Source of the DNA: Candidatus Parcubacteria bacterium
GTDB lineage: Bacteria > Patescibacteriota > Minisyncoccia > JACPXH01
Length of the DNA: 64,000 nucleotides
Assembly (NCBI GenBank): GCA_016196625.1
Contig: JACPXH010000024.1
Location: 1,206-65,205, forward strand
Reading direction: 5' to 3'
A program made the position numbers and the translations under genes. Under the pieces are notes generated by a model, which had not been told where the DNA came from, made no database searches, and saw nothing but the letters and a program-made list of their open reading frames with translations. Shown piece after piece: positions 1,958-38,075 of this stretch; the stretch's first letter is position 1, and each line of letters starts with the position of its first letter.

Positions 1958-2637
1958 GACGGATGCTGCCACTGGTACTACTTGTCGTTCTGGCCGGCTT
2001 CTTCCTGGTACAGGGATACAGATCCAGCAAGTCGGTTGCCCCTGACCAAAACTCTCCGGCGTCAGAATCACCGCTGCGAAGCGATCTGGTGGCGACCGGA
2101 CAGGCGACGGACACGCCGGCTGCGTCAACTCCGGCTGATCAAACAGAAAACGCCGCCTTTACTGCTTGGCTTCAACAATTTAGCCAGAAACAAGAGGCTC
2201 AACGTGCAACCGAAACGCTCACTGCGGAAGAAAAACAGCGGCTCGTGGACTACCTCGTCGCTTCAGCCCGCATCGCCTGGCCTCAAGATCCGGTCGGGCT
2301 GCGTGAAGCGCTACTCGAGAATAAAGACGGTAAACCAGCAAAACTCGACGCGGTGATTCGGGGCTTTGAAGCCGGCACTACGGAACTCAAAAAACTCACG
2401 CCGCCCGAGCGTTTGGTCGCGGTGCATGCAGCCACGCTAAATCAACTCGCTGACTTAATCGGCGTCTATAAGGACCTGCGGGGCGGTGCCGGCAAGTCAA
2501 TTGCCGAAACCTGGCAAGGCCCCACCATGGCCGGGCTGCGAGAGCGTTCCGCTCAAACCCTGCAACAGATCCATGAGCTCGTCTCCCAGTACCAGCTGCA
2601 ACTCCCTGACGACGTCTTGCCCCCTTATGCGCTCTAG
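1954..2637 (+). CDS. Hypothetical secreted/TM-anchored protein. The GTG start overlaps the previous stop (GTGA).
   Basis: ORF track; N-terminal signal/TM segment. Confidence 0.4.
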   Translation: MRRMLPLVLLVVLAGFFLVQGYRSSKSVAPDQNSPASESPLRSDLVATGQATDTPAASTPADQTENAAFTAWLQQFSQKQEAQRATETLTAEEKQRLVDYLVASARIAWPQDPVGLREALLENKDGKPAKLDAVIRGFEAGTTELKKLTPPERLVAVHAATLNQLADLIGVYKDLRGGAGKSIAETWQGPTMAGLRERSAQTLQQIHELVSQYQLQLPDDVLPPYAL

Positions 2638-5116
2638 GAACACATTGAACCGCGGCGCGGCCGTGATACTAGTGGCGCTGATCATCGCCGTCATCGGCAC
2701 GCTGGGCGCTGCCGGCAGGGCTGAAGCCGCAGTGCCCACGGCGATTACCCACTTTGTGGCGAACACCAACTTCGAGCAGAGTCTCGAATCGTTCCTCACC
2801 TCATTCATCTCCACCTTTTTTGGCGCCCTGCAGCTGCGCAATGAGGACTTCCAGAAGACCCTTGAACTCGGCAAGATCGAAGCTGCGCGCGAAGACGTGA
2901 ATAAGCTCGTGTTCGACACTCTCCGTGAGCTCAAGGAAGGGGCCTTGGGCGGAGTGGTAATCGACGATCCGGCGCAGGCCCGATCGGTGCTCAAGGGGCT
3001 CGGCATCCAGGTTCCGCCCGACATACACTCCGCCAGCCTAACTTGTCCGGCCGGCGCGTTCATCGGCGGACAATGCGTCATGGTCAAACGCGAGGGACGC
3101 ATCATCACGAACGTTGACCATTACCTCTACGAAGAACCCCTGCAGAAAGCGCGCGACTACGTCAACTGCTACTACAACCTGCTCGAGTGGCGCCAAGCGA
3201 CAAACCAATTCGCCACCTACACGAAAATCCGGCTTGACCCCCAAAACCCAGCCCCGGCTGTTCGAGACAGTATTATCCACCTTGACCTCCAGAAGGCCAA
3301 TTTTCTCGCCTCGCTCCAGCGCTCGGAACGCGGCCTTATCAATGCGCCGCCGGTCTCGTGGTACCGCGGCGGAAAGGTCTCGGAAATCAACTGGGGGAGC
3401 ATCACGAACCACGCGGAATACGACAAACTCTACGCCGCACCCAAGTGCGATCTCATTTTGCGCAACATATCCTGCGCCGATGCGGCAGGCGGGTGCTTTC
3501 CGGTCTCGTATCTCTCCGACATTGTGCCCATAAACCCGTCTGAAGCGGCCAGCGACTACTACGATCCGGGCGCAGTCAATGAACTCGTCAACCCTGATTT
3601 CCCGGATGCGCGCACGAACCCGGCCGCGAGCGCCGAGTGGAGCTGGGATCTTGTGGAAAAATCTCGCAACCCGGTCAACACCTTGGGCGGACTCGAGCAA
3701 AAAGTGGCGGCCGCGGCAAAGCGCATCATTGCCGAAGCTGCGGAAGCGAATAAAGCGCAACTGGTCTCTGGCCAAGGCGTGCGCTCCCAGACGTATCTGG
3801 TCGGCTGGCCGGACCAATGGGCCGAGGCGGACAACCTGCGGGGCAAATATTATTTCGTGGACACCGGCAGCATCATCTCGCCGGCTTTCATCCTGCTCGA
3901 CAAAGTCAAGGCCGCGATCCAAGCCGAGTTTGATCTCGCTCAAAAAGCGTACAAGTACCCGCCGGAAGCAAACGTCCAAAGCACCCAATACCGGTTCATC
4001 GGCCAACAAGGGAGCGAGCGCAAAGACGACCTCACCATATCTTCGCTGAAGCCAGAGATCGACAAACTCCCCGCACCCTTCGAAGACTTCAGCAATTACC
4101 TGGCGCTCCCAGCTGATCTCTACGAACGACCCGGAACCTATGCCCAGGGGCCAAACCGACCGGATACGAAAACCAAAACTGCCAACACCAACTACCTCAA
4201 CAAACTTTTCAAAGACGTGCTGCAGCTGCACGAACGGTCTTGGAGCGACGTAATCGCAAGCTGGTTTGGCAGCGAGGCCGATTTCTTTGCCAGCCGATCC
4301 CGATCCGGAGCGCGGTTTTTCCGAAATCTCGGCGCGGTCCGTACAGCGCTTGATGCCAGTATCGGGCAGCTAGAGCCGGCGGTGGCAGAACTGGAGGGGA
4401 CTGCAAATACTCCGGATCGCATCCGACTCGCCCAAGCGGCTCGGGACTCTTTAAGCCGGCTTCAAGAAGCGCGGGACGGCCTCGAACACAACGACATGCC
4501 CGCCGCCACGATCTACGGCAAAATAGCCCAAGCAGATTTGAACCTTGGACTCGTCGCAGCCGGACTTGGCAGCAGCGCCAGCCAGGCTTCTGCTATCAAC
4601 CAGGCGCGTCAAACTATCGGCGCGGACTCGGCTGCCATCCAGCAAGCTCGTAACGCCGCCACCCGCGAACAAATCGACTACTCCCTTGCCACCATCAACC
4701 AGACCGCCGTGGTGGTCGGGCAGCTGCCGGGCGGCGGAGAAGCCGGCCGCGATCTCTCCCGAGCCGCAGCCACGCTCCGCGACGCTGACCGCCTAATCCA
4801 GCAGGGCGCCAATGTCGGCGATGCCCAAAACAACCTGCGCCAGCAAATTTCAACCAGCTTGAGCCTGCTTAGCAACAGCGCTGCAGTACTCAACCAAACA
4901 GGCGTGCAGACTCCCGGCGCTTACCAAGCAATCGGCCGGGTGCAAAGCACTATCTCGGCTGTCGATCGAGCCAACAGTTACCTCACCGATGCGACGCGCA
5001 TCCAAACGCTCATCGCGAGCGGCGATCCGCTTACGCTACTCACCGGCATAAGCCAAGGGCTCAACCTGTTTAATTCAGCTTCCAGCTTCTTCCAAAGTTT
5101 CTTCGGGGCTCCTTAA
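2627..5116 (+). CDS. Large (about 830 aa) secreted protein with signal peptide MRSRNTLNRGAAVILVALIIAV...AEAAVP. Start reassigned to the ATG at 2627, which overlaps the previous stop by 11 nt; the track ORF from 2486 is an upstream read-through. Possibly a T4SS-associated surface protein or adhesin.
   Basis: ORF track; signal peptide; no catalytic motif recognised. Confidence 0.5.
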   Translation: MRSRNTLNRGAAVILVALIIAVIGTLGAAGRAEAAVPTAITHFVANTNFEQSLESFLTSFISTFFGALQLRNEDFQKTLELGKIEAAREDVNKLVFDTLRELKEGALGGVVIDDPAQARSVLKGLGIQVPPDIHSASLTCPAGAFIGGQCVMVKREGRIITNVDHYLYEEPLQKARDYVNCYYNLLEWRQATNQFATYTKIRLDPQNPAPAVRDSIIHLDLQKANFLASLQRSERGLINAPPVSWYRGGKVSEINWGSITNHAEYDKLYAAPKCDLILRNISCADAAGGCFPVSYLSDIVPINPSEAASDYYDPGAVNELVNPDFPDARTNPAASAEWSWDLVEKSRNPVNTLGGLEQKVAAAAKRIIAEAAEANKAQLVSGQGVRSQTYLVGWPDQWAEADNLRGKYYFVDTGSIISPAFILLDKVKAAIQAEFDLAQKAYKYPPEANVQSTQYRFIGQQGSERKDDLTISSLKPEIDKLPAPFEDFSNYLALPADLYERPGTYAQGPNRPDTKTKTANTNYLNKLFKDVLQLHERSWSDVIASWFGSEADFFASRSRSGARFFRNLGAVRTALDASIGQLEPAVAELEGTANTPDRIRLAQAARDSLSRLQEARDGLEHNDMPAATIYGKIAQADLNLGLVAAGLGSSASQASAINQARQTIGADSAAIQQARNAATREQIDYSLATINQTAVVVGQLPGGGEAGRDLSRAAATLRDADRLIQQGANVGDAQNNLRQQISTSLSLLSNSAAVLNQTGVQTPGAYQAIGRVQSTISAVDRANSYLTDATRIQTLIASGDPLTLLTGISQGLNLFNSASSFFQSFFGAP

Positions 5117-5119
5117 GGC

Positions 5120-6688
5120 ATGAAGCGCCTGTCCAACCAAACAAAATACACAGTCCTCGTCGGCGCTCTGACCGCCGCAACGCTCCTGTGGCCGGCGAGC
5201 GCTTTTGCCCAAAGCTGGTGGGAGAACCTTTTGGATTTCGGCGCTGGAGCACTGACCGCGGTCCCAAGCGCTATACTCTTGGGAACGCTTGACATCATCT
5301 CGGGCATCCTCCATGTCATCTTGCGGGTGGCAGCGGCCCTGCTCAATTACGTCGCCAGCGGCGCCTTCCTCGCCCACCCGGTCACGCAATACCCCATTGT
5401 GCAGATTGGCTGGCGCATCACGCGAGACTTGGCCAATATGGCCTTCGTTCTTATTCTGCTGTGGCTCGCCATCACCACCATTTTGCGCCTTGAACAGTAC
5501 GGTAAAAAAGAGCTTATCATCCGGCTCGTCGTAATAGCGCTCATCATCAACTTCAGTCTGGTTATCGGCGGGGTACTCATTGACGTCTCAAACCGAGTGA
5601 TGCTGCTTTTCCTCGATCCGCTCACCAAAGGCGGCAAAGACGGAGCTGCGGTTATTCTAACCGGCAGCAACCTAATCAAGTCCTTCGGCGACAACCCGAT
5701 CAGCTTCTTTCGAACGAGCCAGCAGCTCGCGACCATTGTGCAAGCGGTCTTTGAACTCTTCTTTACAGTCGTCATGACCGGAGCCCTCCTTGTGATTGGG
5801 GCGCTTATGGTCGTAAGGGTTGTGTACTTCTGGTACCTGCTTATTTTGGCGCCGATCGCGTGGTTGTCGTGGGCGTTTCCGACGATCGGAGAAGTGGGGG
5901 GCGAGGCAGGCTACAAACGATGGTGGGACACGTTCGTGCAGTGGCTGTGGTGGGGGCCGACGGCTGCGTTCTGGCTACTCATTGCGGCCATCGCCGCGCA
6001 AACCCTTCACAAGCTGCCCAATCAATACGCCGCCTTCACCGCGGCCAGCCAAAGCAACGCGCTCGCTAAAATCCCGAGTGCCATGCTCACCACCTTGGCC
6101 CCGCTCCTGCAATACACCATTGTGGTGTTTTTCCTGTTCCGGGCCATCGCCGCGATGAAAAAGGGTGCGGGCGAGCATGTCAGCGGATATGTGGGCAAGG
6201 CCATGACGAAGATGACCGGCGATTATCTGCGCAAGCCAGCGCTTGCCGCCTGGCGCGCCACCGGCGTCCCGGGCGGAGTCAAACAAAGGTGGGAACAAAT
6301 AAAGAAGGGTGGTCTTAGAGTGGGCGGAGTCCAACTCTACGGGGGCGCCCAGGCCAGAGAGTTACGTGAGGCTCGTGTTGCCCAGTTCTTCGGTAAGAGA
6401 GGGGCGGCCACACGCCTTGAAGCTTCCCGCCGCGCCCAAGACATCAAGGATCTCCAAGAGGGCCGCATGGCTGCCCTCACCAGCCCCGAACTCTCGGCCC
6501 TACTACCCCCGATCCCGCCCGCAGGCGGCGCACTCCCCACCGTAACCGAAGACATGGCCGCAGCCGCAAAAGAGCTGCTCACGCGCCGGGAACACTTTGA
6601 ACGCATCCGCTCAACGCTCGGCCAAGCTCAAGAACACGCCGAATACGAGCACCTACGCAACGTTGTTCGCCGCTACGTGAACCCGTAA
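5120..6688 (+). CDS. Polytopic membrane protein with signal peptide, more than 6 TM helices and a charged cytoplasmic tail. VirB6/TrbL-like T4SS channel component (inferred).
   Basis: Hydrophobicity pattern and position immediately upstream of the VirB3/VirB4-like genes. Confidence 0.4.
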   Translation: MKRLSNQTKYTVLVGALTAATLLWPASAFAQSWWENLLDFGAGALTAVPSAILLGTLDIISGILHVILRVAAALLNYVASGAFLAHPVTQYPIVQIGWRITRDLANMAFVLILLWLAITTILRLEQYGKKELIIRLVVIALIINFSLVIGGVLIDVSNRVMLLFLDPLTKGGKDGAAVILTGSNLIKSFGDNPISFFRTSQQLATIVQAVFELFFTVVMTGALLVIGALMVVRVVYFWYLLILAPIAWLSWAFPTIGEVGGEAGYKRWWDTFVQWLWWGPTAAFWLLIAAIAAQTLHKLPNQYAAFTAASQSNALAKIPSAMLTTLAPLLQYTIVVFFLFRAIAAMKKGAGEHVSGYVGKAMTKMTGDYLRKPALAAWRATGVPGGVKQRWEQIKKGGLRVGGVQLYGGAQARELREARVAQFFGKRGAATRLEASRRAQDIKDLQEGRMAALTSPELSALLPPIPPAGGALPTVTEDMAAAAKELLTRREHFERIRSTLGQAQEHAEYEHLRNVVRRYVNP

Positions 6689-7564: not shown

Positions 7565-7951
7565 ATGCAATTCCAGGTTCCTCAATTCATTGACGTGGAA
7601 GATCGGGTGGTGGGTCCCCTCACCTGGCGGCAGTTTGTGTACGTGGCGGGTGCCGGCGGGATTCTCTTCCTGCTCTGGCTTATTTTGGAGGTCGCCGTCT
7701 GGGTCATCGCCGCCGTGCTCATTGGCGGGTTTGCTCTGGTTGCGGCCTTCCTCAAGGTCAATGGTCGGCCGTTCCTGTTGTTCCTAGCTTCAGTGTTCGG
7801 ATTTGCGGCGAAACCCCGACGCTACATCTGGCGGCCGCATGCGCCCAACGCCAGCCCGGCCGACGCATCAGCGCCGCGGGGATCGGCCCCGCTTTCGAAA
7901 ATCCGGGAACTGGCTTGGTCGCTCACGGCGAAAAAGGACCAGCCACGATGA
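7565..7951 (+). CDS. Small two-TM membrane protein, PrgI/VirB3-like (inferred).
   Basis: 128 aa; two hydrophobic helices (GILFLLWLILEVAVWVIAAVLIGGF, LLFLASVFGFAA); sits directly upstream of the VirB4-like gene, as in Gram-positive T4SS operons. Confidence 0.35.
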   Translation: MQFQVPQFIDVEDRVVGPLTWRQFVYVAGAGGILFLLWLILEVAVWVIAAVLIGGFALVAAFLKVNGRPFLLFLASVFGFAAKPRRYIWRPHAPNASPADASAPRGSAPLSKIRELAWSLTAKKDQPR

Positions 7952-8062
7952 AAGTCCAAATGACAAATCCAAGGCTCAAGGCTCAAGGCTCAACGTTCAA
8001 AACGATTTGGCCTTTGGATTTTGAACTTGATTTGAAATTTGAGCTTTGAGTTTTGAGCTTCG
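7952..8062. repeat. Heptamer-array palindromic repeat, copy A. Left half is tandem NNCAAAN units (GTCCAAA TGACAAA TCCAAGG CTCAAGG ...TTCAAAA); right half is the inverted complement (TTTTGAA CTTGATT TGAAATT TGAGCTT).
   Basis: Read directly; related copies at 37953-38075, 40535-40607 and 55098-55170. Confidence 0.6.
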
Positions 8063-8071
8063 TCCTATCCT

Positions 8072-8731
8072 ATGCCCGCATCCAACCTCCCCGCCACCCA
8101 ATCCTTCCTCGCCTTTGAGTCCATCCACGACGACGTGGTGGCGATGAAAGACGGGTCGCTTAGAGCCATCCTCATGGCTTCCTCCATGAACTTCGAGCTC
8201 AAGTCCACCGAAGAACAAGACGCCATCGTCTATGCTTACCAAGACTTCCTTAACTCGCTCGATTTCCCCATCCAGTTCGTCGTCCACTCTCGTCGGCTCG
8301 ACATCGAGGAGTACTTGGAGGGCATCCGGGCCCTCGAGAAAGACCAGCCCAACGAACTCTTGCGCCTGCAGACAAGCGAATACGTCAACTTCGTCAAAGG
8401 TTTTGTGGAGCTCGCGAACATCATGTCAAAGACCTTCTACGTCGTGCTGCCGTTCGTGCCGGTCGAGCGCACCAAGGCCTCGTGGAGCGACCGGATGCTG
8501 GCGGCGTTTAGACCGCGGGCGGCTCTCAAAGCGGCTGGCCGCTTTGAAGAATACCGCAATCAGCTCTGGCAGCGGGTGGAACACGTTGCGTCCGGGCTAA
8601 GTCGCTTTGGGGTACGCGCAGTCGCGCTCACCACCGAAGAACTCGAGGAGTTGTTCTACGCGCTCTACCGGCCCGGCGAAGCAGCAAAAGCCGGGCTGGA
8701 GGCACTAAAGCAGCTTGAGTTCAAAACATAA
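8072..8731 (+). CDS. VirB4 N-terminal (CagE/TrbE/VirB-like) domain fragment, 219 aa. It is probably the N-terminal part of a split or frameshifted VirB4.
   Basis: Motif ...VVAMKDGSLRAILMASSMNFELKSTEEQDAIVYAYQDFLNSL... resembles VirB4/TrbE N-termini. The downstream ORF is open in another frame from 8709, so a single frameshift within 8709-8731 would fuse the two. Confidence 0.45.
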   Translation: MPASNLPATQSFLAFESIHDDVVAMKDGSLRAILMASSMNFELKSTEEQDAIVYAYQDFLNSLDFPIQFVVHSRRLDIEEYLEGIRALEKDQPNELLRLQTSEYVNFVKGFVELANIMSKTFYVVLPFVPVERTKASWSDRMLAAFRPRAALKAAGRFEEYRNQLWQRVEHVASGLSRFGVRAVALTTEELEELFYALYRPGEAAKAGLEALKQLEFKT

Positions 8732-8738
8732 ATCAGCC

Positions 8739-10517
8739 ATGGCTTTGCGCTTCTTCCAATCAAGCCAAAACACAAAACCGCCGGCGAGTCCGACCGGACT
8801 AGCCGACCTGATCGCGCCCAGCGCCGTTGAAATCTCCGCTGATCACGTCAAGATCGGCGATCGGCTCGCGCGCACCATCTTTGCTTTTACCTACCCTCGC
8901 TACCTCGGCACCAACTGGTTCAGCCCCGTCATCAATCTTGACCGGATCTTCGACATCTCGGTCTCAATCAGTCCGGTGGACACGGGCACCATCCTAAAGC
9001 GGTTGCGCAAAAAAGTAGCCGAGGTGGAATCAACCATCTCCATGCGCCAGGAAAAGGGCTTGGTGCGAGATCCGTTGCTTGAAACCGCCTACCAGGACCT
9101 GGAGGATCTGCGCGACAAACTCCAGCAGGCCCGCGAACGGCTGTTCGCCGTGGGGCTGTACATTACTATCTACGGTCCGGACGAAAAAACGCTCGACGAC
9201 GCCGAGGCGCAGATCCGGGGACTATTGGAAACTCGGCTCGTCTACGCGCGCCCAGCCACTTTCCAGCAAGAGTTGGGGTTCAGCACCACGCTGCCGCTCA
9301 ACAACGATACGCTGCGGGTTGCCACCAACCTCAACTCTTCACCCCTCTCTACTATCTTCCCGTTCGTGTCCTCGGAGCTGACCTCGGATCGCGGCATCAT
9401 GTACGGCATCAACCGGCACAACAACTCCCTCATCCTCTTTGATCGTTTTTCCTTGGAGAATGCGAATTCGGTAGTCTTTGCCAAATCCGGCGGCGGCAAA
9501 AGCTACCTCGCCAAGCTCGAAATCCTGCGCTCCATGATGCTGGGGACCGATGTTATCGTGCTGGACCCTGAAAACGAATACCACTACCTGGCCGAAGCCG
9601 TAGGCGGAAGTTTCGTTAAAATTTCTCTGGCTTCCCGAAACCACATCAACCCCTTTGACCTGCCCCTGCCGGCAGAGGGGGAATCGCCCGAAGAGGTGTT
9701 CCGGGCGCACGTGGTCGAACTCGTGGGGCTCATCCGCATCATGCTGGGCGGGCTCACCCCGGAGGAAGACGCCATCATGGACCGCGCTATAGCGCAAACC
9801 TATGCGTCGCGCGACATCACGCCCGGCTCGAATTCTTCGAAGGCCGCCCCGCCCACGCTGAGCGACCTGCAGACGATTCTTGAAAACACCGCCGGCGCCC
9901 AGCAACTCGCAACGCGACTTTCTAAATACACCTCGGGCAGCTACGCGGGCTTCCTAAACCAGCCCACCAACATTGCCATCACCAGTCAGCTCGTCGTCTT
10001 CAACGTCCGCGACATGGAGGAGGAACTCCGCCCGATTGCGATGTACGTCGTGCTCCACCACATTTGGAACGTCATCCGACGCGAACTCAAAAAGCGCATC
10101 CTCATCGTGGATGAAGCGTGGTGGCTCATGAAAACCGCAGACGGCGCCTCGTTCCTGTTCTCAATTGCCAAGCGCGCGCGCAAGTACTACTTGGGGCTCA
10201 CCACCATCACGCAAGACGTCGCCGACTTTATGAAATCAACTTACGGCGAACCCATCGTTACCAACTCCTCTTTGCAAATCCTTTTGAAGCAGTCGCCAGC
10301 GACCATTGAAACCGTGGCTAGAACTTTCAGCCTGACGGACGAAGAAAAATTCCTGCTCTTAGAAGCCAACGTGGGGGAGGGCATCTTCTTTGCGGGCTTG
10401 AAACGCGCGGCGATCAAGATAGTCGCTTCCTACTCTGAAGATCAAATCATCACCTCTGATCCGGAACAATTGATTGCGATCGAGCAGGCCAAAAAAGAAC
10501 TCTCCGCTACTGCTTAA
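8739..10517 (+). CDS. VirB4/TraC-family T4SS ATPase (C-terminal part or a complete Gram-positive-type VirB4).
   Basis: Walker A VVFAKSGGGKSYLAK; Walker B ILIVDEAWWLM; N-terminal IAPSAVEISADHVKIGDRLARTIFAFTYPRYL typical of the VirB4 family. The track ORF starts at TTG 8715; the ATG at 8739 is preferred. Confidence 0.65.
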   Translation: MALRFFQSSQNTKPPASPTGLADLIAPSAVEISADHVKIGDRLARTIFAFTYPRYLGTNWFSPVINLDRIFDISVSISPVDTGTILKRLRKKVAEVESTISMRQEKGLVRDPLLETAYQDLEDLRDKLQQARERLFAVGLYITIYGPDEKTLDDAEAQIRGLLETRLVYARPATFQQELGFSTTLPLNNDTLRVATNLNSSPLSTIFPFVSSELTSDRGIMYGINRHNNSLILFDRFSLENANSVVFAKSGGGKSYLAKLEILRSMMLGTDVIVLDPENEYHYLAEAVGGSFVKISLASRNHINPFDLPLPAEGESPEEVFRAHVVELVGLIRIMLGGLTPEEDAIMDRAIAQTYASRDITPGSNSSKAAPPTLSDLQTILENTAGAQQLATRLSKYTSGSYAGFLNQPTNIAITSQLVVFNVRDMEEELRPIAMYVVLHHIWNVIRRELKKRILIVDEAWWLMKTADGASFLFSIAKRARKYYLGLTTITQDVADFMKSTYGEPIVTNSSLQILLKQSPATIETVARTFSLTDEEKFLLLEANVGEGIFFAGLKRAAIKIVASYSEDQIITSDPEQLIAIEQAKKELSATA

Positions 10518-10520
10518 CTC

Positions 10521-10982
10521 ATGCCCGCCGTTGCCGCGCCAGTTCAAAATGAAGCCCCGGCCGCACCCGAACGCTCCCGGGCCGAGGCCTTCTTGGCCCG
10601 CAAGCGCGCCGCGCTGCCTGCGGCCTCCGCTCCACGCAAGCCAGAGCCTTCGATCGGCTTGGGCGAATTCATGTTGATGCTTTTTTTCGCTGCTTTTTTC
10701 GATCTGGTCTCCCTGGTGCCGTGGCTGAACCTAGTCACGGTCTTTCTGGGCAACGTAACTTTTGGCGCCTGGTTTTGGTTTAAGGGGCTCTCGTTTAAAA
10801 AACTGCGTCTCGCCTTCGCGCTCGAAAGCATCATTGAACTCGTCCCATTTTTGAGCATATTGCCGGGCTTCCTCGGCCTCGTTATTACGGCTTACGTTGT
10901 CCAGCGCGCCGGCCGCTTAATCGGCCAGCTGCCCGGAGGGCAGCTGGCTGCTCGGGCCCTTGAAGGACGGAGGACAATTTAA
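10521..10982 (+). CDS. Small membrane protein (3 predicted TM helices) within the T4SS-like operon.
   Basis: ORF track; hydrophobic helices. Confidence 0.35.
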   Translation: MPAVAAPVQNEAPAAPERSRAEAFLARKRAALPAASAPRKPEPSIGLGEFMLMLFFAAFFDLVSLVPWLNLVTVFLGNVTFGAWFWFKGLSFKKLRLAFALESIIELVPFLSILPGFLGLVITAYVVQRAGRLIGQLPGGQLAARALEGRRTI

Positions 10983-11833
10983 TGCCCCGACCCTTCGCCG
11001 TCGCCATCGTTTCGCTTGCGCTCGCGTTTGTGGTGTCGCTGGCGCTGGGCGGGCCGCGACTCCTCGCCCAAGACCTGCGCGAGAACGAGCCCCTCTCCCA
11101 GCTGCCTGTGCCAGAGCCCGGCGGTGGCGTAGTCACGCCCGGCATTGGCATCGCGAACTTCGTGCGCTACGTGTATCTCTTCGGCATCAGCTTCGTGGCC
11201 GTGGCCGCAGCGGTGTCCATAATGTACGGCGGGGCAAGGTATATGTTTTCGGCAATCCCCGGCGTCAAAGAGGATGCCAAAGACCGCATAACCAACGCCG
11301 GAATCGGGCTTGCCTTGGCGCTGGGCGCTTTCATTATCTTACGCACCATAAACCCGGATCTTGTATCCTTCAAACCCATCGAGGGAGACTTTCTGCATCT
11401 TGAAGAACCGGCCCAGCCCGGCAGCGGCCGGATCGTGATCCAGCCGGGGGATGCGTGCAGCCTCGCGGGTCCAAACCTGTGCGCTGCCGGTTCAACCTGC
11501 AGACCAGACTTCCTACCGGGCTCCGCCACCGTCCGACCAGACTCCACCACCGGCGCCACCTGTCAAACAGACAGCACGCCGCAGGTTCTCGGCAACGGCC
11601 AAGACTGCTCGCGCAACCCCAATGCCTGCGGGCCAAACCTGCAATGCACGAACGTCTCGGGTCATCTGGTGTGCACTCCGATACCGCCAGCGGCCGGCGT
11701 GCCTGAAAACGACGTCTGCGAAACCGATGTCTTCCGAGGTCAAGGCAACTGCGGCATTGGCTCCAACGGCCGGCCGCTCACGTGCGTAACCCAAAACGCC
11801 GCTACGCGCCGCGGCACCTGCCGGGCCTTCTAG
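10982..11833 (+). CDS. VirB2/TrbC-like pilin-fold protein (signal peptide plus two-helix hairpin GISFVAVAAAVSIMYGGARYMFS...GIGLALALGAFIILRTI) with a 170-aa Cys-rich, Thr/Pro-rich C-terminal extension (about 16 Cys).
   Basis: Hydrophobic hairpin resembling conjugative pilins; the ATG shares an A with the previous TAA; the stop shares a CTAG with the convergent gene. Confidence 0.4.
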   Translation: MPRPFAVAIVSLALAFVVSLALGGPRLLAQDLRENEPLSQLPVPEPGGGVVTPGIGIANFVRYVYLFGISFVAVAAAVSIMYGGARYMFSAIPGVKEDAKDRITNAGIGLALALGAFIILRTINPDLVSFKPIEGDFLHLEEPAQPGSGRIVIQPGDACSLAGPNLCAAGSTCRPDFLPGSATVRPDSTTGATCQTDSTPQVLGNGQDCSRNPNACGPNLQCTNVSGHLVCTPIPPAAGVPENDVCETDVFRGQGNCGIGSNGRPLTCVTQNAATRRGTCRAF

Positions 11834-13041
11834 GGCGCTGCGACGAGCAACGCCACAAGCACCCACCAGACCGTAGCGAGGTCTGCCCGCCACAAAGTGG
11901 TGTCCACCAAGCCGTGGAGGAGTGGGACCATGAGGGTAAGGGCCACTGCACCGGCAAAGGGTGACTTTTTGGTTTGGCGAAAACGCCGCCACAGCACAAC
12001 AAAGAGCCACACAAGTCCGGCTAACCCCATAAGCCCGGCACTCAACCACGCGGTGAAGAACAGGCTGTGAGGATGCGGCACTGCCCACTCGGGATACGGT
12101 GGATGTTTAGGCTGGTTTTGCAAGTACGCGGTCTCAAACGTCCCGGGCCCGATTCCTAAAAACGCGTGGCTAAACCCAATCTCAAGGGCAACCTGCCAGA
12201 TGACGCGCCGGGAGGCGAATGGCGGCTGGAAAACGGCGTATAAGAAGGCCCCCAAGACGAGCGCGGCCAAAACAACTGCGAGTACGCGCTTTCTTATTGT
12301 GGCTTTGCGGCCAAACCAGAGGACACCCGCACCAACCGCAAGACTTGCTCCCATGGCACCCAGAGATCGGGTGAGTAGCAAGGGCAAAACCATGATCGCC
12401 CCGGCCCAGCGGCTAACCGTCTGCCACTCGTGGGCAATGGCGGCGCGACTAATTGCAAAAGCGAGCACTGTAAGCGGGGCCAAGTACATGGCCAAAAAAT
12501 TAGGCGAGCCGTACCACGCGGTCAAGCGATTGTCGTAAGCAAGGTCGCCGGAAACAATGTACCCAATCGCCCCCACCGCCGCGAACACTCCGCCGCCGAT
12601 AAGACCGGCGAGGACGTGAGCTTTCTTTGCGGTGCCTCGCTCCATGGCAAGCCAAAGCACGAAACCCAAGAGCAACGGAACCAAAAACCAACTCTTGAGA
12701 ATGCCGAGTCCGGTGCGGTAAGCGCCTGAACGCAAAATCCCAAGCGCAAGCCCGGTGATAAGCAGTGCTATGGGCCACGCCAAAAATCGCAACTTCTGCC
12801 AAGCCAGGGTCCACGTCGAACGCTGGGCGAAGAGTGGCAGCGCCCGCGCGAACAAAATGAGGCTCATGAGTTCGGGCACACTCACCGGCACGGGACCGAC
12901 TGGAAAACGGATGTGCCAAAGCGGGATAAGAGTGAGCGCTACGCCGACGGCGGCGGCAAACCGCCACCACGCCAAAACCGCAAACCCGACGCCAACGAGT
13001 GCGAGGAGCAAAAAACCAGAAATGGTCTCTACCAAAATCAT
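11830..13041 (-). CDS. O-antigen ligase/Wzy-like polytopic membrane protein.
   Basis: Multi-TM protein; GIGPGTFE and HPHSLFF motifs typical of the Wzy_C family. Start set at MILVETISG (13041), overlapping the upstream gene by 4 nt. Confidence 0.5.
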   Translation of the reverse strand: MILVETISGFLLLALVGVGFAVLAWWRFAAAVGVALTLIPLWHIRFPVGPVPVSVPELMSLILFARALPLFAQRSTWTLAWQKLRFLAWPIALLITGLALGILRSGAYRTGLGILKSWFLVPLLLGFVLWLAMERGTAKKAHVLAGLIGGGVFAAVGAIGYIVSGDLAYDNRLTAWYGSPNFLAMYLAPLTVLAFAISRAAIAHEWQTVSRWAGAIMVLPLLLTRSLGAMGASLAVGAGVLWFGRKATIRKRVLAVVLAALVLGAFLYAVFQPPFASRRVIWQVALEIGFSHAFLGIGPGTFETAYLQNQPKHPPYPEWAVPHPHSLFFTAWLSAGLMGLAGLVWLFVVLWRRFRQTKKSPFAGAVALTLMVPLLHGLVDTTLWRADLATVWWVLVALLVAAP

Positions 13042-14384
13042 GTTTGTTGTTTGCGGGCGGCTGCCGCGGCATAGCCGAGCACCGCAGCCACAAGGGGCAC
13101 GACCACGGGCGAAAACATCATAATATCGAAGAAGCTCAAGACTGCAAATCCGATTAAACTCGCAAGCCCGGCCATGGCGCTGGGCGCGGGGCTCGCTCGA
13201 CCCAACGCGAAAAACGCTCCCCCCAGCAGCGCCAGCCAAAGCCCAAGCCCCACCACCCCTGTTTCCGCTGCCAATTCAAGATAGGTGTTATGCGTAGATA
13301 CCGGTGTCCGATAGGTGAAATCGCCCTCGGACCGAACCAGGAGCGGATAGTTCCCCAGCCCCACGCCCAGGGGATGCGTGACCGCCGTTGCAAAACCTGT
13401 GCGCCACGCCACCAGACGTTCCGCGTTGGAGCCTTCGCCCAAGTCTACTGCCACCAGAGTCCGCTCGCCCACGAACGGCACGGCGAACGTAAGGGCGGCT
13501 GTCGCGGAAAAAATCAGCACGAACTTGCGCCCAAGACGGCAGGCAGCCACAAACCCGGCAGCAGCCAAACCGGCGTAAGCTGAACGACTAAAAGTGAGGG
13601 CAATGATTCCCACTGCCAGCACCATCGACGCAAACCAAGCGGCTTTCTGGCGGGGCCGGACCGCACTCTGCCAGACTACGGCCATGAACGGCAGGGCTAC
13701 CACCAGGACAGCGCCCAAGGTGTGGGGGTCGGGCAGCGTGCCTACGGCGCGAAGCACATCTCTGCCGCCAACGTGCACAAACCAGCTTGAAAATGACTGC
13801 ACAGTTTCGGCCACGGTTGCGCCAGCGAACAGTGGGGTTACGCGGGCGAGCCAAAAGGCCGCACTACCCAGCCAACCTATGAGTGCTGCGCCAGCGGCAA
13901 GTACTCCTGCGCCGGCAATCGCTCGCACGAACGCGCGCTCGGCGCCCTCGCCCTCGCGCAACCACCAATATACCGCAAACGCAAGTGGCCAAAGCGTAGC
14001 CCACACGAACGCCTTGCGCACCGCCCAAACAGCTGATCCTCCGGCCCAGAGCGCGGAGAGCGCTCCCCACACCACGGCGAGTCCAAGCCAAAAAAGAAGC
14101 TGGTTCGGGCGACTTTTCCGCGGCCACAAAAGCACCGTCGCCGGAATCCAAAGGCGGCTTACGGCCACGTCAAAACCGGGCCACGGGTTGAGGGCTGGGG
14201 TAATCGGCAACAACAAGATCCCCGCCGCCAACACCCATCCGGCTCGAGTCCGCATGCCCAGAACCGTCGCGGTGAGTCCGGCTGCAACGACTGCAGCCAC
14301 CGGCGCCAGGGCCGCGCCCACGCCCACGGCCAGAGCTGCGGGCAAAGCGAACAGATACCTCACGCCAAGAAGTGTTTCGGTCAT
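13038..14384 (-). CDS. O-antigen ligase family (Wzy_C) membrane protein.
   Basis: FSRSAYAGL, GVGLGNY and HNTYLELAAETGVVG motifs. Confidence 0.55.
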   Translation of the reverse strand: MTETLLGVRYLFALPAALAVGVGAALAPVAAVVAAGLTATVLGMRTRAGWVLAAGILLLPITPALNPWPGFDVAVSRLWIPATVLLWPRKSRPNQLLFWLGLAVVWGALSALWAGGSAVWAVRKAFVWATLWPLAFAVYWWLREGEGAERAFVRAIAGAGVLAAGAALIGWLGSAAFWLARVTPLFAGATVAETVQSFSSWFVHVGGRDVLRAVGTLPDPHTLGAVLVVALPFMAVVWQSAVRPRQKAAWFASMVLAVGIIALTFSRSAYAGLAAAGFVAACRLGRKFVLIFSATAALTFAVPFVGERTLVAVDLGEGSNAERLVAWRTGFATAVTHPLGVGLGNYPLLVRSEGDFTYRTPVSTHNTYLELAAETGVVGLGLWLALLGGAFFALGRASPAPSAMAGLASLIGFAVLSFFDIMMFSPVVVPLVAAVLGYAAAAARKQQT

Positions 14385-15853
14385 GGCGAGACGGGCGGCG
14401 CTGGCACACCAGCCGGCACCGCGGACGACCTACGGCCCAACCGGAAAAGCTCCAGCTCGGCCGGCCCAATGGCACCGGAGGCCCAGGTTGAGAGCAGATA
14501 GCTTGTTGTACCCAGCGCCACGAGCGCGGCGAGCCCGAGCGGGCGCGCGGCCGCGAGCACCAAGGCCAACACCGCCACGGCAGGCAGGCTTCTAGCAAAT
14601 CGCTTAAGCGAAAGCCGCACCTTGGCGCCCTGAAACACGATGCGGGCCAGGAAGACCGTCACCACAATCTCGGTCGCCACCGTGCCCCAGGCGGTGCCGA
14701 AGTACGAATAGCGGGGAATGAGCGCTAAATCCACTACAAGCATAGTGACGAGCCCCGCGAGATACGCCGAGAGCGCGCTCTTTTGACGCCCCAGCACCAC
14801 GACTGCGCTCCCAAAAAGATTACCGAAGAAAATGAGGGCGACCGCCACTCCCAGCACCGCCATGACCCCACCCGAGGCTCTAAAGTCCGGCCCGCCGAGT
14901 AACAAAGCAATTTTGTCGGCCACGAAAACAAGCCCCACCACAATGGGCACACCCGCAACGAAAAACAAATCAAAGATTTGTTGGAGCAGGGCCCGGAAAG
15001 CCCCTCGACTTTCACTTAAACGTTGCGCCAGGCGGGGCAGCATCAGGCCCATAAACATAGCCGGGAAGAAAATAAAATGCTCAAGCACGCTGTAGGCAAG
15101 TCCGTAGATGGCGACGTCGTAAGATGGCTTAAAAAATCCAAGCAGGAGCGCGTCGCCCTTAAAGTAGACCAGGGTGAGACCAATGGAGATTGCCATGGGC
15201 CAAGATTCGACCAGAGAACGCTTGAGCCACCCGGCAGACGTGCGTCCGGTCGGAACAACGAAGAGCCGCACCGCGAAGCGCAGAATAAAAAACTGCACTA
15301 GCCCCGAGAGCGCGAGCCCGGCGAGGACGCCCGCGAGTCCGGAGCGACGCGCGGCCAGAAGAATAACGCCCAAGAAACACAGCTTCCCCGCAACTTCTGC
15401 CACCCCCACCCAAAACATCGCCAGGTACTTCTGGAACACGGCCGACAGAATCTGCGAGAGCGAGTTGAACGCGAAAAAGAAGCTCGCGATGACGAGCCCC
15501 GAACGGACCGCGCTTGAAAACGGGAGTACCAAACTCGCGGCCACCCCAAGCCCAAACACGCCCCCGAGCGCTGCGGCCCGCAGCCAGAAGTAGGCTCGCA
15601 CCAGCGCTGCCTCGTCGGCTCCGGGTCGCGCGATATCTCGAGCGAGCAAAGAATATAAGCCCCAGTCGGCGCAGGCGTGCAAGATCGTCCCGTACGCAAT
15701 CACCAAACTCCACTCTCCAAACGTATTTGCCCCGAGCACGCGCGTGAGCACCCCGATAATCAAAACAGAGAGGGCGGCGCTCACAACGCGGCTTAAGACC
15801 AGAAACGCAGCGTTGAGCCCCACGGTCTGGGCGAGTTGCCGCACTGCAACCAT
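14381..15853 (-). CDS. Wzx-type polysaccharide/oligosaccharide flippase (polysaccharide biosynthesis protein family).
   Basis: 490 aa, about 14 TM helices; N-terminal pattern typical of Wzx/MOP flippases. Confidence 0.55.
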   Translation of the reverse strand: MVAVRQLAQTVGLNAAFLVLSRVVSAALSVLIIGVLTRVLGANTFGEWSLVIAYGTILHACADWGLYSLLARDIARPGADEAALVRAYFWLRAAALGGVFGLGVAASLVLPFSSAVRSGLVIASFFFAFNSLSQILSAVFQKYLAMFWVGVAEVAGKLCFLGVILLAARRSGLAGVLAGLALSGLVQFFILRFAVRLFVVPTGRTSAGWLKRSLVESWPMAISIGLTLVYFKGDALLLGFFKPSYDVAIYGLAYSVLEHFIFFPAMFMGLMLPRLAQRLSESRGAFRALLQQIFDLFFVAGVPIVVGLVFVADKIALLLGGPDFRASGGVMAVLGVAVALIFFGNLFGSAVVVLGRQKSALSAYLAGLVTMLVVDLALIPRYSYFGTAWGTVATEIVVTVFLARIVFQGAKVRLSLKRFARSLPAVAVLALVLAAARPLGLAALVALGTTSYLLSTWASGAIGPAELELFRLGRRSSAVPAGVPAPPVSP

Positions 15854-16361: not shown

Positions 16362-16825
16362 ACCGTATAAGGGCGCACCACAACCCGGCGCGCATCGCCC
16401 TCACCTTGAGATTCGGTCATGATGTCCGGACGCGTTGCCAACTCCACATGAATGACCCGGCGCTCGAAAGCGCTCATGGGTCTAAGTTGGATGGGGCGCT
16501 GCTCCAGCTTGACTTGCTGCGCCACTTGGCGCGCGAAAGACCGGAGATACTCGGCCCGCTCGCGCCGATAATTATTAATATCACAGACGACGAGCGGCGC
16601 TTCGGCGCCAAGCTGACGGCTTACGAGCACCCGCAGCAAGTGCTCGAAGGCCTTCAAATTGTCTCCGCCCTTGCCGATGAGAAAGCGCCCCTCGCGCATC
16701 GCAATCAGCACCTGCCACGGTTCAGGGGTTGCCGCGGGCTCGATCCGGACGTCAAAGTCGCCCAGCCCCATGCCGCTAAGCAGACCGCGCACAATACCGT
16801 CAACGTGTTCGACTTGATTAAGCAT
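16358..16825 (-). CDS. jag: Jag/SpoIIIJ-associated RNA-binding protein (KH + R3H domains).
   Basis: KH-like GKGGDNLKAFEHLLRVL and R3H-like ERRVIHVELA; conserved position after yidC. Confidence 0.7.
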   Translation of the reverse strand: MLNQVEHVDGIVRGLLSGMGLGDFDVRIEPAATPEPWQVLIAMREGRFLIGKGGDNLKAFEHLLRVLVSRQLGAEAPLVVCDINNYRRERAEYLRSFARQVAQQVKLEQRPIQLRPMSAFERRVIHVELATRPDIMTESQGEGDARRVVVRPYTV

Positions 16826-17609
16826 GGGACTTCCGTTTCGCCCACAAGCGCTGTGCGATCTGCAGGGCCGTCGACGTGACCCAATAAAGAGAAAGTCCGG
16901 CCGGAAAACTTAGCGCCGCAAACGCAATAAGCACCGGAAATACATACGTCGTCTGGGCGGACATGATGCGGGTGAAGTCTTGGGCGCGCGCATCCGGCGA
17001 CGATGGCAGGATCGTGAGCTTTGATTGTACGAACTGTGTAAGTCCAGTCAAGACGGCCAGCACCGCGTTTGGCCGCGCCAAATCCACCAGGCCAAATAGT
17101 GTGGCGTGCACCACTGTTGGTTTCGCGACAAACCCGTAGAGCAAGGACAGACTCTCCGGGTTGGTTGCCATCCTGAACACCTGAAATAGCGCAAAGAAAA
17201 TTGGGAGCTGCACGAGAATAACGATGCAGCCGGTGAATGGATTGACACCGTGTTCCCGGTAGAGCGCCATCGTGGCCTTGGCTTGCGCCCCGCGATCATC
17301 CTTGTGGGCCTCTTGAAGGCGTTTTAGCTCTGGCTGGAGCTTCGTCATCGCTTCCTGGGAGGCAAAGATCTTGCGCGAGAGGGGATACAGCAAAACACCC
17401 CAGACGAGCACCGTAAAAAGGATCGTGGCGAGCCCCAAATCCGACACCGGCAGCACATTGTAGATGCCAATGAGCAGGTTGAGGAGGGGACGTACGAGAA
17501 TCGTTTGGAACATAAGCGCGTCAGTGGAGCGGATCAAGGCCGCCCCGCGCCCAAGGGTGGCAACGACTGACCCGCCGCACACCCAACCAGATCCCTCGCC
17601 AAGCCCCAT
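16818..17609 (-). CDS. yidC: YidC/Oxa1-family membrane protein insertase (short form).
   Basis: 263 aa multi-TM protein in the conserved rnpA-yidD-yidC-jag context. Confidence 0.75.
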
Positions 17610-20150: not shown

Positions 20151-21266
20151 ATGAGATTTACTTGCTTGCAGGAAAACCTACAAAACGCGTTGAGTGTTGT
20201 AGAGCGCATTGCGGGACGCAATGCCGCACTACCGATTTTGAGCGCCGTGCTCATAAGTACGCACCAGAATCGTCTACAGTTTGTGGCTACCGACCTGGAG
20301 CTTGGTGCAACAACCTGGTGCGCTGGAAAATTAGAAGGCGAAGGGCGACTCGCCCTGCCCATGCGTCTTATTACCCAGTTTGTCTCTAATTTCATTCCCC
20401 AAACGAAACTGCAGCTTGACTTTAATCCACCCCACCTAACCGTTACCACCGAAAATTCTAAGGCCACGTTCCGGGGCCTGGACACCAAGGACTTTCCCAT
20501 TATTCCGGCATTCACACCACTCCACGCCGTAACCGTCCCAGTCAAAACACTTCTGCACGGTCTGGGGCAAGTTCTGCCCGCAGTAGCCACCCACGAAGCA
20601 CGACCGGAAATCAACGGCGTGCTGTTCGCTATATCCAAAAACGAACTCAAGCTTGCGGCGACTGACACATTTCGGCTGGCTGAAAAAATAATTACCACCC
20701 AGGCGCCTGACGACAACGTAAGCCGGGCGGCCCGCGTCATCGTCCCACACCGAACTCTCCACGAAGTCGTGCGCATTTTTAGCGCCGGCACCGAAGACAT
20801 CCACATTGACGTCGGCGAACATCAACTGTGCTTTCATACTCCGACAGCCCAGCTTATTTCACGGCTCATCGCGGGCGAGTACCCAAACTACGCCGCGATT
20901 ATACCAACCAAGTTTCAAAACAATACCGTGGTGGCCTCAAAAGCTTTTGCGGGTTTGGTCCGGGGCGCAGCGATCTTCGCCACCAAGCTAAATGATATTC
21001 ATGTCGGGATTGAAACATCGAAACGCGCGGTGCGTGTTTCGGCCGTCGACCCAGATAAAGGCGACCACACCGCCACTGCGCCGGCCGAAATATCCGGTGA
21101 GCCGCTGGAGGCCAGCTTCAATTACCGGTACTTACTAGACGGCATTGAGGCCATCCCCACCGACAACCTTGAGTTCGCAGCCACTTCCGCTTCCACCCCA
21201 GCGGTGATCAAGCCGCGCGGCGACCCAAGTTTTATTTATGTCATCATGCCGATTCGGCGCAGTTAA
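20151..21266 (+). CDS. dnaN: DNA polymerase III beta sliding clamp.
   Basis: 371 aa; N-terminus MRFTCLQENLQNAL...; follows dnaA. Confidence 0.9.
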   Translation: MRFTCLQENLQNALSVVERIAGRNAALPILSAVLISTHQNRLQFVATDLELGATTWCAGKLEGEGRLALPMRLITQFVSNFIPQTKLQLDFNPPHLTVTTENSKATFRGLDTKDFPIIPAFTPLHAVTVPVKTLLHGLGQVLPAVATHEARPEINGVLFAISKNELKLAATDTFRLAEKIITTQAPDDNVSRAARVIVPHRTLHEVVRIFSAGTEDIHIDVGEHQLCFHTPTAQLISRLIAGEYPNYAAIIPTKFQNNTVVASKAFAGLVRGAAIFATKLNDIHVGIETSKRAVRVSAVDPDKGDHTATAPAEISGEPLEASFNYRYLLDGIEAIPTDNLEFAATSASTPAVIKPRGDPSFIYVIMPIRRS

Positions 21267-37952: not shown

Positions 37953-38075
37953 ATTTCAAATGCCAAAGCTCAAATGACAAATAAAATCCAAAGCCCAAAG
38001 TTCAAAACGGTCTTGTCATTGGGATTTTGAGCTTTGAGCTTGACTTGAAATTTGGATTTTGGCATTTTGATTTCG
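37953..38075. repeat. Heptamer-array palindromic repeat, copy B (TTCAAAT GCCAAAG CTCAAAT GACAAAT ... TCCAAAG CCCAAAG TTCAAAA, then the inverted complement).
   Basis: Read directly; coordinates within about 2 nt. Confidence 0.6.

Follow-up and report, generated by a model that had tools for sequence, protein, structure and literature searches.

Two neighbouring open reading frames (ORFs) at positions 8072-10517 of a 64,000-nucleotide stretch of contig JACPXH010000024.1, here called the window, raise the question of whether they are the remains of one broken virB4 gene, one gene read through a programmed frameshift, or two genes in their own right. The GenBank source name of the contig is Candidatus Parcubacteria bacterium. 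An earlier note, made from the sequence of the window, described a VirB4 homologue that is split by a frame change into a 219-amino-acid N-terminal ORF (ORF1) and a 600-amino-acid ATPase ORF (ORF2), and it left four options: a genuine split VirB4, a frameshift pseudogene, programmed frameshifting or an assembly indel. Our analysis makes it very probable that 8072-10517 holds two separate, co-transcribed genes of a Patescibacteria type IV secretion system (T4SS), one for a TrsD-like protein and one for an N-terminally short VirB4, which are halves of one VirB4. The TrsD/short-VirB4 arrangement is already known and has been published for Patescibacteria. We describe the junction, its conservation across relatives, the mapping of both products onto full-length VirB4 proteins and the surrounding gene cluster.

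Reading frames at the junction

ORF1 runs on the plus strand from the ATG at 8072 to the TAA at 8729-8731 and encodes 219 amino acids. By sequence reading it includes KDGSLRAILMASSMNFELKSTEEQ and YQDFLNSL, so that the coordinates and motifs reported earlier for a VirB4-like N-terminal signature hold. The ORF2 frame has a stop at 8706-8708 and is hence open from 8709; the two open frames overlap over 8709-8731, as had been noticed. The earliest start in the ORF2 frame is the TTG at 8715, which gives the 600 amino acids first reported. The supported start is the ATG at 8739, which is the NCBI-annotated one and agrees with the start of the homologue in the closest relative (L001, 83% identity); from it ORF2 encodes 592 amino acids and ends at 10517. 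GenBank lists ORF1 as MBI3305450.1, ‘hypothetical protein’, 219 amino acids, and ORF2 as MBI3305451.1, ‘ATP-binding protein’, 592 amino acids. Relative to ORF1, ORF2 is in the +1 frame, (8739-8072) mod 3 being 1.

The ORF1 stop and the ORF2 ATG are separated by a spacer that holds no slippery site (Table 1). A scan for promoters and terminators found none at the junction (8700-8745). Because the spacer is 7 nt long and has neither, ORF1 and ORF2 are likely co-transcribed, and the spacing suggests translational coupling of TrsD and VirB4.

Two genes in all assessable relatives

Relatives were surveyed using one representative genome per GTDB species. This yielded 536 confirmed loci, of which the best 80 were analysed; counts of loci below refer to these. 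The ORF1 homologue ends at its own stop in all 80, at a length of 213-257 amino acids. An ORF2 homologue of ~600 amino acids lies directly downstream in 78, the other two being cut by a contig end. The frame of the second gene relative to the first is 0, +1 and +2 in 23, 29 and 26 of these 78 loci, respectively. Measured from the stop of the ORF1 homologue to the first ATG, the spacer is 10 nt long at the median and ranges from -26 to +448 nt. The relative frame in L001 differs from that in the window, and its 119-nt spacer carries stops in all three frames.

Both ORFs are under strong purifying selection. The ratio of nonsynonymous to synonymous substitution rates (dN/dS), computed for the window against L001 with dS saturated, is 0.067 for ORF1 and similar, 0.045, for ORF2; the corresponding ratio of uncorrected proportions (pN/pS) is ~0.16 for both. 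Copies of the 219-amino-acid protein at 90% identity or above occur in at least three other metagenome-assembled genomes (MAGs). The C-terminus of ORF1 and the N-terminus of ORF2 line up with the natural ends of their homologues.

These data bear on two of the ways in which a single gene could lie behind the pair. The overlap of open frames over 8709-8731, the collinearity of the pieces with one VirB4 and the existence of a fused 797-amino-acid form in one Patescibacteria MAG (see below) would all fit an ancestral virB4 of ~800 amino acids that was broken at ~8709-8739 by a 1-nt indel, whether as a frameshift pseudogene or through an assembly or sequencing error. That reading is very hard to reconcile with 78 of 78 assessable relatives that have the same two genes, an ORF1 stop of their own, three frame relations and spacers of up to 448 nt; with the stops in every frame of the L001 spacer; with the copies at 90% identity or above in other MAGs; and with the dN/dS of ORF1 and the natural ends of both products. 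We consider it a very slight possibility.

Programmed +1 ribosomal frameshifting near the A-rich CAAAACATAAATCAG would produce a fused full-length VirB4 besides or instead of the two products, and ORF2 does lie in the +1 frame, which is open for the 23 nt that precede the ORF1 stop. Relatives do not share this frame relation, however: the 23 in-frame pairs are separated by stops, and the rest divide between +1 and +2. Spacers are often tens to hundreds of nucleotides long and contain stops, there is no conserved slippery motif, and ORF2 has a proper ATG at 8739, at the same place as the start of its closest homologue. Separate genes are likewise found in the systems of staphylococci, Pontibacillus and Embleya described below. 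We give frameshifting practically no credence.

The comparative data thus led us to reject the pseudogene, assembly-indel and programmed-frameshift readings: relatives keep the two-gene layout, the frames are spread, the spacers vary and carry stops in L001, copies exist in other MAGs and selection is purifying. Of the four options first considered, the genuine split is the one that stands. To speak of a VirB4 ‘split by a frame change’ is misleading, the +1 relation being incidental to two neighbouring genes.

Two parts of one VirB4

ORF2 is a VirB4 ATPase, as had been proposed from its central VirB4 motifs and Walker A/B ATPase. Its Walker A motif is AKSGGGKS and its Walker B motif ILIVDE. 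It scores 369.6 bits against the NCBIfam model NF045971 for the CD1110 family of VirB4 (conju_CD1110; curated cut-off 325 bits), over profile positions 187-728 of 752. The Pfam families P-loop_TraG, AAA_10 and DUF87 exceed their gathering scores. ORF2 residues 214-572 match the VirB4 C-terminal domain in PDB 4AG5 (E-value 1.6e-43), and ORF2 matches residues 292-735 of TrwK, the VirB4 of R388. ORF2 sits within a T4SS cluster, close to a VirB3-like gene (prgI, 7565-7951). It does not have a complete VirB4 N-terminal domain, since it starts at the equivalent of ~187 in the 752-position profile, ~214 in a 783-amino-acid VirB4 and ~230 in the fused protein P0240 introduced below. It is ORF1 that supplies the absent segment.

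ORF1 was placed by family profiles and by fold. It matches positions 2-118 of the same CD1110 profile (E-value 1.4e-5), ahead of the part covered by ORF2, and positions 104-232 of the NCBIfam model for the mycoplasma VirB4 Mbov_0397. It also matches the TrsD/TraD model NF041427 with E-value 1.8e-6 and 27.9 bits. A search for ORF1 homologues found 1,682, of which the top 120 are all 209-237 amino acids long; the family PF26593 ‘TraC-like’ is precomputed for all of these 120 and for P0001, a database copy 100% identical to ORF1. A Pfam scan of ORF1 returned no family, the Pfam copy scanned being one without PF26593. The size and homology of ORF1 fit a class of free-standing VirB4 N-terminal homologues of ~200-260 amino acids.

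A fold search was needed for ORF1 because sequence search cannot reach TrwK. An AlphaFold (AF2) model was built on 25 homologues, with a predicted local distance difference test score (pLDDT) of 73. When it was compared with the PDB using Foldseek, TrwK/VirB4 chains of R388 took all 12 top places, at probabilities of up to 0.99, E-values of ~0.01-0.16 and template modelling (TM) scores of ~0.3-0.44.

The two products are complementary on full-length proteins, as the earlier note had proposed to check by alignment. Along a canonical 783-amino-acid VirB4 encoded on a plasmid of Clostridium perfringens, ORF1 covers residues 20-133 (hhalign, probability 75%) and ORF2 residues 214-754 (31% identity), with no overlap; together they cover one protein. 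An exhaustive profile search for the TrsD family through 1.84 billion cluster representatives found 3,628 members at E-value up to 0.001; among the best 150 there is a single full-length fusion. This is P0240, a natural fusion of 797 amino acids from a Patescibacteria MAG. ORF1 aligns to its residues 8-216 (38% identity, E-value 1e-48) and ORF2 to its residues 230-796 (57% identity), leaving a linker of ~13 residues between the TrsD and VirB4 parts. The P0240 locus has prgI upstream and yidC-rnpA-dnaA-dnaN nearby, as in the window. As judged by these alignments, ORF1 and ORF2 are two parts of one VirB4. The pair of findings that the earlier note had named as speaking against a split, an unrelated family for ORF1 together with end-to-end alignment of ORF2 to complete VirB4 proteins, was not observed.

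Several points weigh against this assignment. The link between ORF1 and the VirB4 N-terminus is remote, with family-profile E-values of ~1e-5 and an hhalign probability of 75% to one full-length VirB4, and the Foldseek support for it is modest (E-value ~0.01, TM score 0.42-0.44). The NF041427 match is far under the curated cut-off of 200 bits. An hhalign comparison of the ORF1 profile with the single TrsD of the staphylococcal plasmid pSK41 is weak (E-value 0.0035, probability 9%), yet collinear over the full length; we would take it solely as collinear support for the NCBIfam match. A profile of ORF1 homologues run against PDB sequences reached no solved structure, the one match being a chance match to XopAI (E-value 0.71). 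Finally, binding of TrsD to the short VirB4 or to PrgI is inferred, the evidence being indirect: the PrgI-TrsD fusion in Embleya, the fused P0240 and the reported essentiality of the homologue in Ca. Southlakia epibionticum (PMC12102498).

The remoteness of the similarity leaves room for a different reading, in which ORF1 only looks like the VirB4 N-terminus and has an accessory role in the T4SS, perhaps as a diverged paralogue, and the 592-amino-acid ATPase is a complete and self-sufficient minimal VirB4 rather than one half of a protein. The short ATPase alone passes the cut-off of the full-length CD1110 VirB4 model, and TrsD homologues of Gracilibacteria are mostly apart from virB4, as stated in PMC12102498. 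In full-length proteins, however, ORF2 begins exactly where the ORF1-like sequence ends, without overlap; P0240 joins both with its short linker at substantial identity to each; and the genes, in the order PrgI-TrsD-VirB4, run parallel to the domains, VirB3 before VirB4. We regard the accessory role as improbable and retain the assignment of ORF1 and ORF2 to two parts of one VirB4.

Another arrangement was seen in passing. In the NCBIfam model NF042935 (actinobacterial SCO6880 family, 477 amino acids), the PrgI ORF of the window matches positions 13-82 and ORF2 residues 90-187 match positions 380-475. These matches suggest another architecture, with VirB3 and the whole VirB4 N-terminal domain in one protein and the ATPase separate, which would be a break point unlike the TrsD one.

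Comparison with known systems

The arrangement in Patescibacteria has been treated by Quinonero-Coronel et al. (2025, Microb Genom; PMC12102498), and what follows draws on parts of that paper. It counts 2,272 TrsD homologues in Patescibacteria, 1,664 of which adjoin virB4, and TrsD is the most abundant T4SS component recovered there. The paper describes a remote homology between TrsD and the N-terminal part of VirB4, and outside Patescibacteria TrsD is given as known only from the pGO1 subclass of MPF_FATA. The T4SS clusters are often near dnaA and usually without a relaxase. We cite the homology of TrsD and VirB4 from this paper because the main text of Guglielmini 2014 (PMC4027160) does not contain ‘TrsD’. 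A literature search for the phrase ‘split VirB4’ found nothing.

The window is from the same phylum, has the same order PrgI/VirB3-TrsD-VirB4 and a weak VirB2-like pilin match downstream, and is likewise origin-proximal with no relaxase seen in the cluster. As far as the parts drawn on go, there is no substantive difference from the published Patescibacteria T4SS, and the window is one more instance. Relative to those parts, the present analysis adds statistics on reading frames and spacers at the junction, the complementary mapping at residue level, P0240 as a fused variant, a PrgI-TrsD fusion and the disordered tails at the break.

The staphylococcal conjugative plasmids pGO1/pSK41 (MPF_FATA) have the pair TrsD/TraD and TrsE/TraE. 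In pSK41, the PrgI/VirB3-like TrsC is followed by TrsD (227 amino acids) and then by TrsE, a VirB4-like ATPase of 672 amino acids. ORF2 residues 19-561 align to TrsE 32-617, an equivalent break point, and ORF1 is collinear with TrsD over its full length, weakly and at the very remote similarity given above (27.9 versus 200 bits; hhalign 9%). In staphylococci the system is plasmid-borne, serves conjugation and includes a relaxase and a coupling protein, whereas that of Patescibacteria is chromosomal and origin-adjacent, and its cluster lacks a relaxase.

The break recurs at this point in a Pontibacillus plasmid, where a 274-amino-acid protein is encoded upstream of a VirB4 of 621 amino acids, and ORF1 aligns over the full 274 residues (hhalign 99.8%). 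The position of the TrsD-like gene between a VirB3-like gene and a gene for an N-terminally short VirB4, all on one strand, is shared by the window, 78 of the 80 relatives, pSK41 and Pontibacillus.

Plasmid NZ_CP108778 of Embleya sp. (WP_331738713.1, WP_331738859.1) has the same break before the ATPase. ORF2 residues 6-590 are covered by its separate 643-amino-acid ATPase at 36% identity, and its 349-amino-acid protein has PrgI at 14-101 fused to a TrsD-like module at 143-297 (hhalign 97%). Unlike in the window, a gene of the XF1762 family is inserted between the PrgI-TrsD fusion and the ATPase gene.

Full-length monoderm VirB4 (CD1110, 783 amino acids) and R388 TrwK (PDB 7O41, 8RTB) are collinear with ORF1 and ORF2 together. 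In contrast to them, the window encodes the first ~190 residues as a separate polypeptide. The linker at ~134-213 of the 783-amino-acid VirB4 is poorly conserved.

A variable linker around the break point

The start of the ATPase piece varies among relatives. That of the window begins MALRFFQS; many others begin MALF or MSLF followed by Lys-rich residues. In 11 of the 80 loci (L021, L031, L033, L034, L039, L045, L046, L056, L065, L069 and L074), several of them labelled Moraniibacteriota, the ATPase piece carries an N-terminal extension of 90-320 residues that is of low complexity and rich in Pro, Ser and Ala. The extension is also seen in L060, L063 and L064, where contig ends truncate the genes. 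Such extensions often begin with the conserved motif MDRIVFRDNKGP, or with the related forms IIFDRP and SIVFxD, and are followed by a conserved domain entry, ALYxxG(I/V)AT...DLIAP. The N-terminal motif may be a short docking motif.

The TrsD side varies as well. About one-quarter of the best 150 TrsD-family representatives are 280-443 amino acids long, and all five long examples that were read have long disordered tails rich in Gln, Pro, Ala and Thr. The tails are C-terminal in P0150, P0161 and P0169 and N-terminal in P0155 and P0207; across both ends the family tails are rich in Pro, Ser, Ala and Gln. Because of these long disordered tails of TrsD-family members we view the TrsD/VirB4 boundary as a hotspot for low-complexity sequence. 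A gene boundary would be tolerated here because the break falls in a variable, often disordered linker.

The surrounding cluster

The features of the window that bear on the T4SS and its surroundings are collected in Table 1.

Table 1. Coordinates of the gene pair, its motifs and neighbouring features in the window
Feature	Position	Strand	Remarks
Polytopic membrane protein, 522 amino acids	5120..6688	+	Candidate VirB6-like translocon subunit
PrgI/VirB3-like small membrane protein, 128 amino acids	7565..7951	+	PF12666 PrgI, E-value 1.8e-10, over gathering score
PrgI-TrsD intergenic spacer	7952..8071	+	120 nt, palindromic heptamer array
TrsD-like protein (ORF1), 219 amino acids	8072..8731	+	Free-standing homologue of the N-terminal ~190 residues of VirB4 (PF26593 ‘TraC-like’)
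Spacer, ORF1 stop to ORF2 ATG	8732..8738	+	7 nt, ATCAGCC
Short VirB4 ATPase (ORF2), 592 amino acids	8739..10517	+	Second half of VirB4 N-terminal domain plus C-terminal ATPase domain
Walker A, AKSGGGKS	9480..9503	+	ORF2 residues 248-255
Walker B, ILIVDE	10098..10115	+	ORF2 residues 454-459
283-amino-acid protein	10982..11833	+	Weak T4SS-pilin (VirB2-like) match, PF18895, E-value 7.7e-4, under gathering score
Wzy_C/O-antigen-ligase-like membrane protein	11830-13239	minus
Wzy_C/O-antigen-ligase-like membrane protein	13038-14384	minus
Polysaccharide-biosynthesis flippase-like protein	14381-15853	minus
YidC	16818-17609	minus
dnaA	18590-19960
dnaN	20151-21266

Of the 80 related loci, 71 have a PrgI homologue immediately before the TrsD-like gene, in the same orientation. 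The 522-amino-acid protein further upstream had no family match in Pfam and NCBIfam scans. In 43 of the 80 loci it is conserved on the upstream side, again in the same orientation; its position and hydrophobic sequence make it a candidate VirB6-like protein. The cluster is headed by an ORF of 876 amino acids (2486-5116) that has no Pfam match and a homologue in one of the 80 loci, L001. It is hence a lineage-specific large protein beside T4SS genes.

The genes dnaA and dnaN lie 8-10 kb downstream of the TrsD/VirB4 pair, the T4SS cluster as a whole is 7-16 kb from dnaA, and the cumulative GC skew has its minimum near 22 kb. Because of the nearby dnaA and dnaN and the skew minimum, we take the window to span the replication origin, with the T4SS cluster origin-proximal. 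No relaxase was seen in the cluster. Between the T4SS cluster and the origin there is a small cell-surface glycan cluster on the minus strand (11830-15853).

The heptamer array that had been noticed immediately upstream of the pair is indeed there, filling the interval between prgI and the TrsD-like gene. Its units are CAAGGCT, in 3.4 copies, facing TTGAGCT-like units, with inverted-repeat arms at 7974-8008 and 8024-8058; Tandem Repeats Finder (TRF) calls the array at 7970-8000. The predicted RNA fold of 7940-8075 is a long imperfect hairpin (-41.7 kcal/mol, z -3.46), and the hairpin has no U-tract. A second, clearly related array element occurs at ~37955-38075 of the window. In L001, related arms at the same PrgI-TrsD position (5795-6000) flank an insert of ~130 nt of different sequence. 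The array looks like a member of an intergenic element family of the repetitive extragenic palindromic (REP) or miniature inverted-repeat transposable element (MITE) kind.

A model of the split VirB4 and its meaning

In the R388 structure, the VirB4 N-terminal domains are membrane-embedded and touch both VirB3 and VirB8 (review PMC12857230). In the window, TrsD would lie next to the membrane and dock on PrgI/VirB3, and the ATPase piece, as a hexamer, would be the motor powering a secretion or pilus machine. The two would probably re-associate non-covalently into a complete VirB4 protomer, and translational coupling would help to hold the two products near 1:1. TrsD as the VirB3-docking part of VirB4 is the simplest model because TrsD modules occur free, joined to VirB4 and joined to PrgI, because the order PrgI-TrsD-VirB4 is conserved, and because of the contacts seen in R388.

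A broader idea can be put forward tentatively, and we think it rather less likely to be right than wrong: TrsD may be an autonomous VirB3-docking adaptor that has repeatedly changed its covalent partner, being free, fused to VirB4 or fused to PrgI/VirB3, while a hypervariable disordered linker is absent, sits on the TrsD C-terminus or on the VirB4 N-terminus, or is replaced by a gene boundary. If this is true, a separate TrsD might set the adaptor-to-motor stoichiometry, or might allow the ATPase hexamer to be loaded once PrgI and TrsD have assembled as a membrane platform. Either way, assembly would include a regulated step that has no described counterpart in canonical T4SSs.

For annotation, the GenBank names ‘hypothetical protein’ and the generic ‘ATP-binding protein’ should read TrsD-like (VirB4 N-terminal module) and VirB4 of a Patescibacteria T4SS, and knowing that the split is conserved guards the pair against being flagged as a pseudogene or a recoding site. 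The split, fused and PrgI-fused variants are a handle, if an incremental one, for studying how the VirB4 N-terminus docks on VirB3. Saccharibacteria reportedly cannot pursue their epibiotic lifestyle without the Patescibacteria T4SS. In Ca. Southlakia epibionticum the locus was shown to be essential by Wang et al. 2023, and a transposon screen lists the TrsD homologue of this species among the essential genes, both as cited in PMC12102498.

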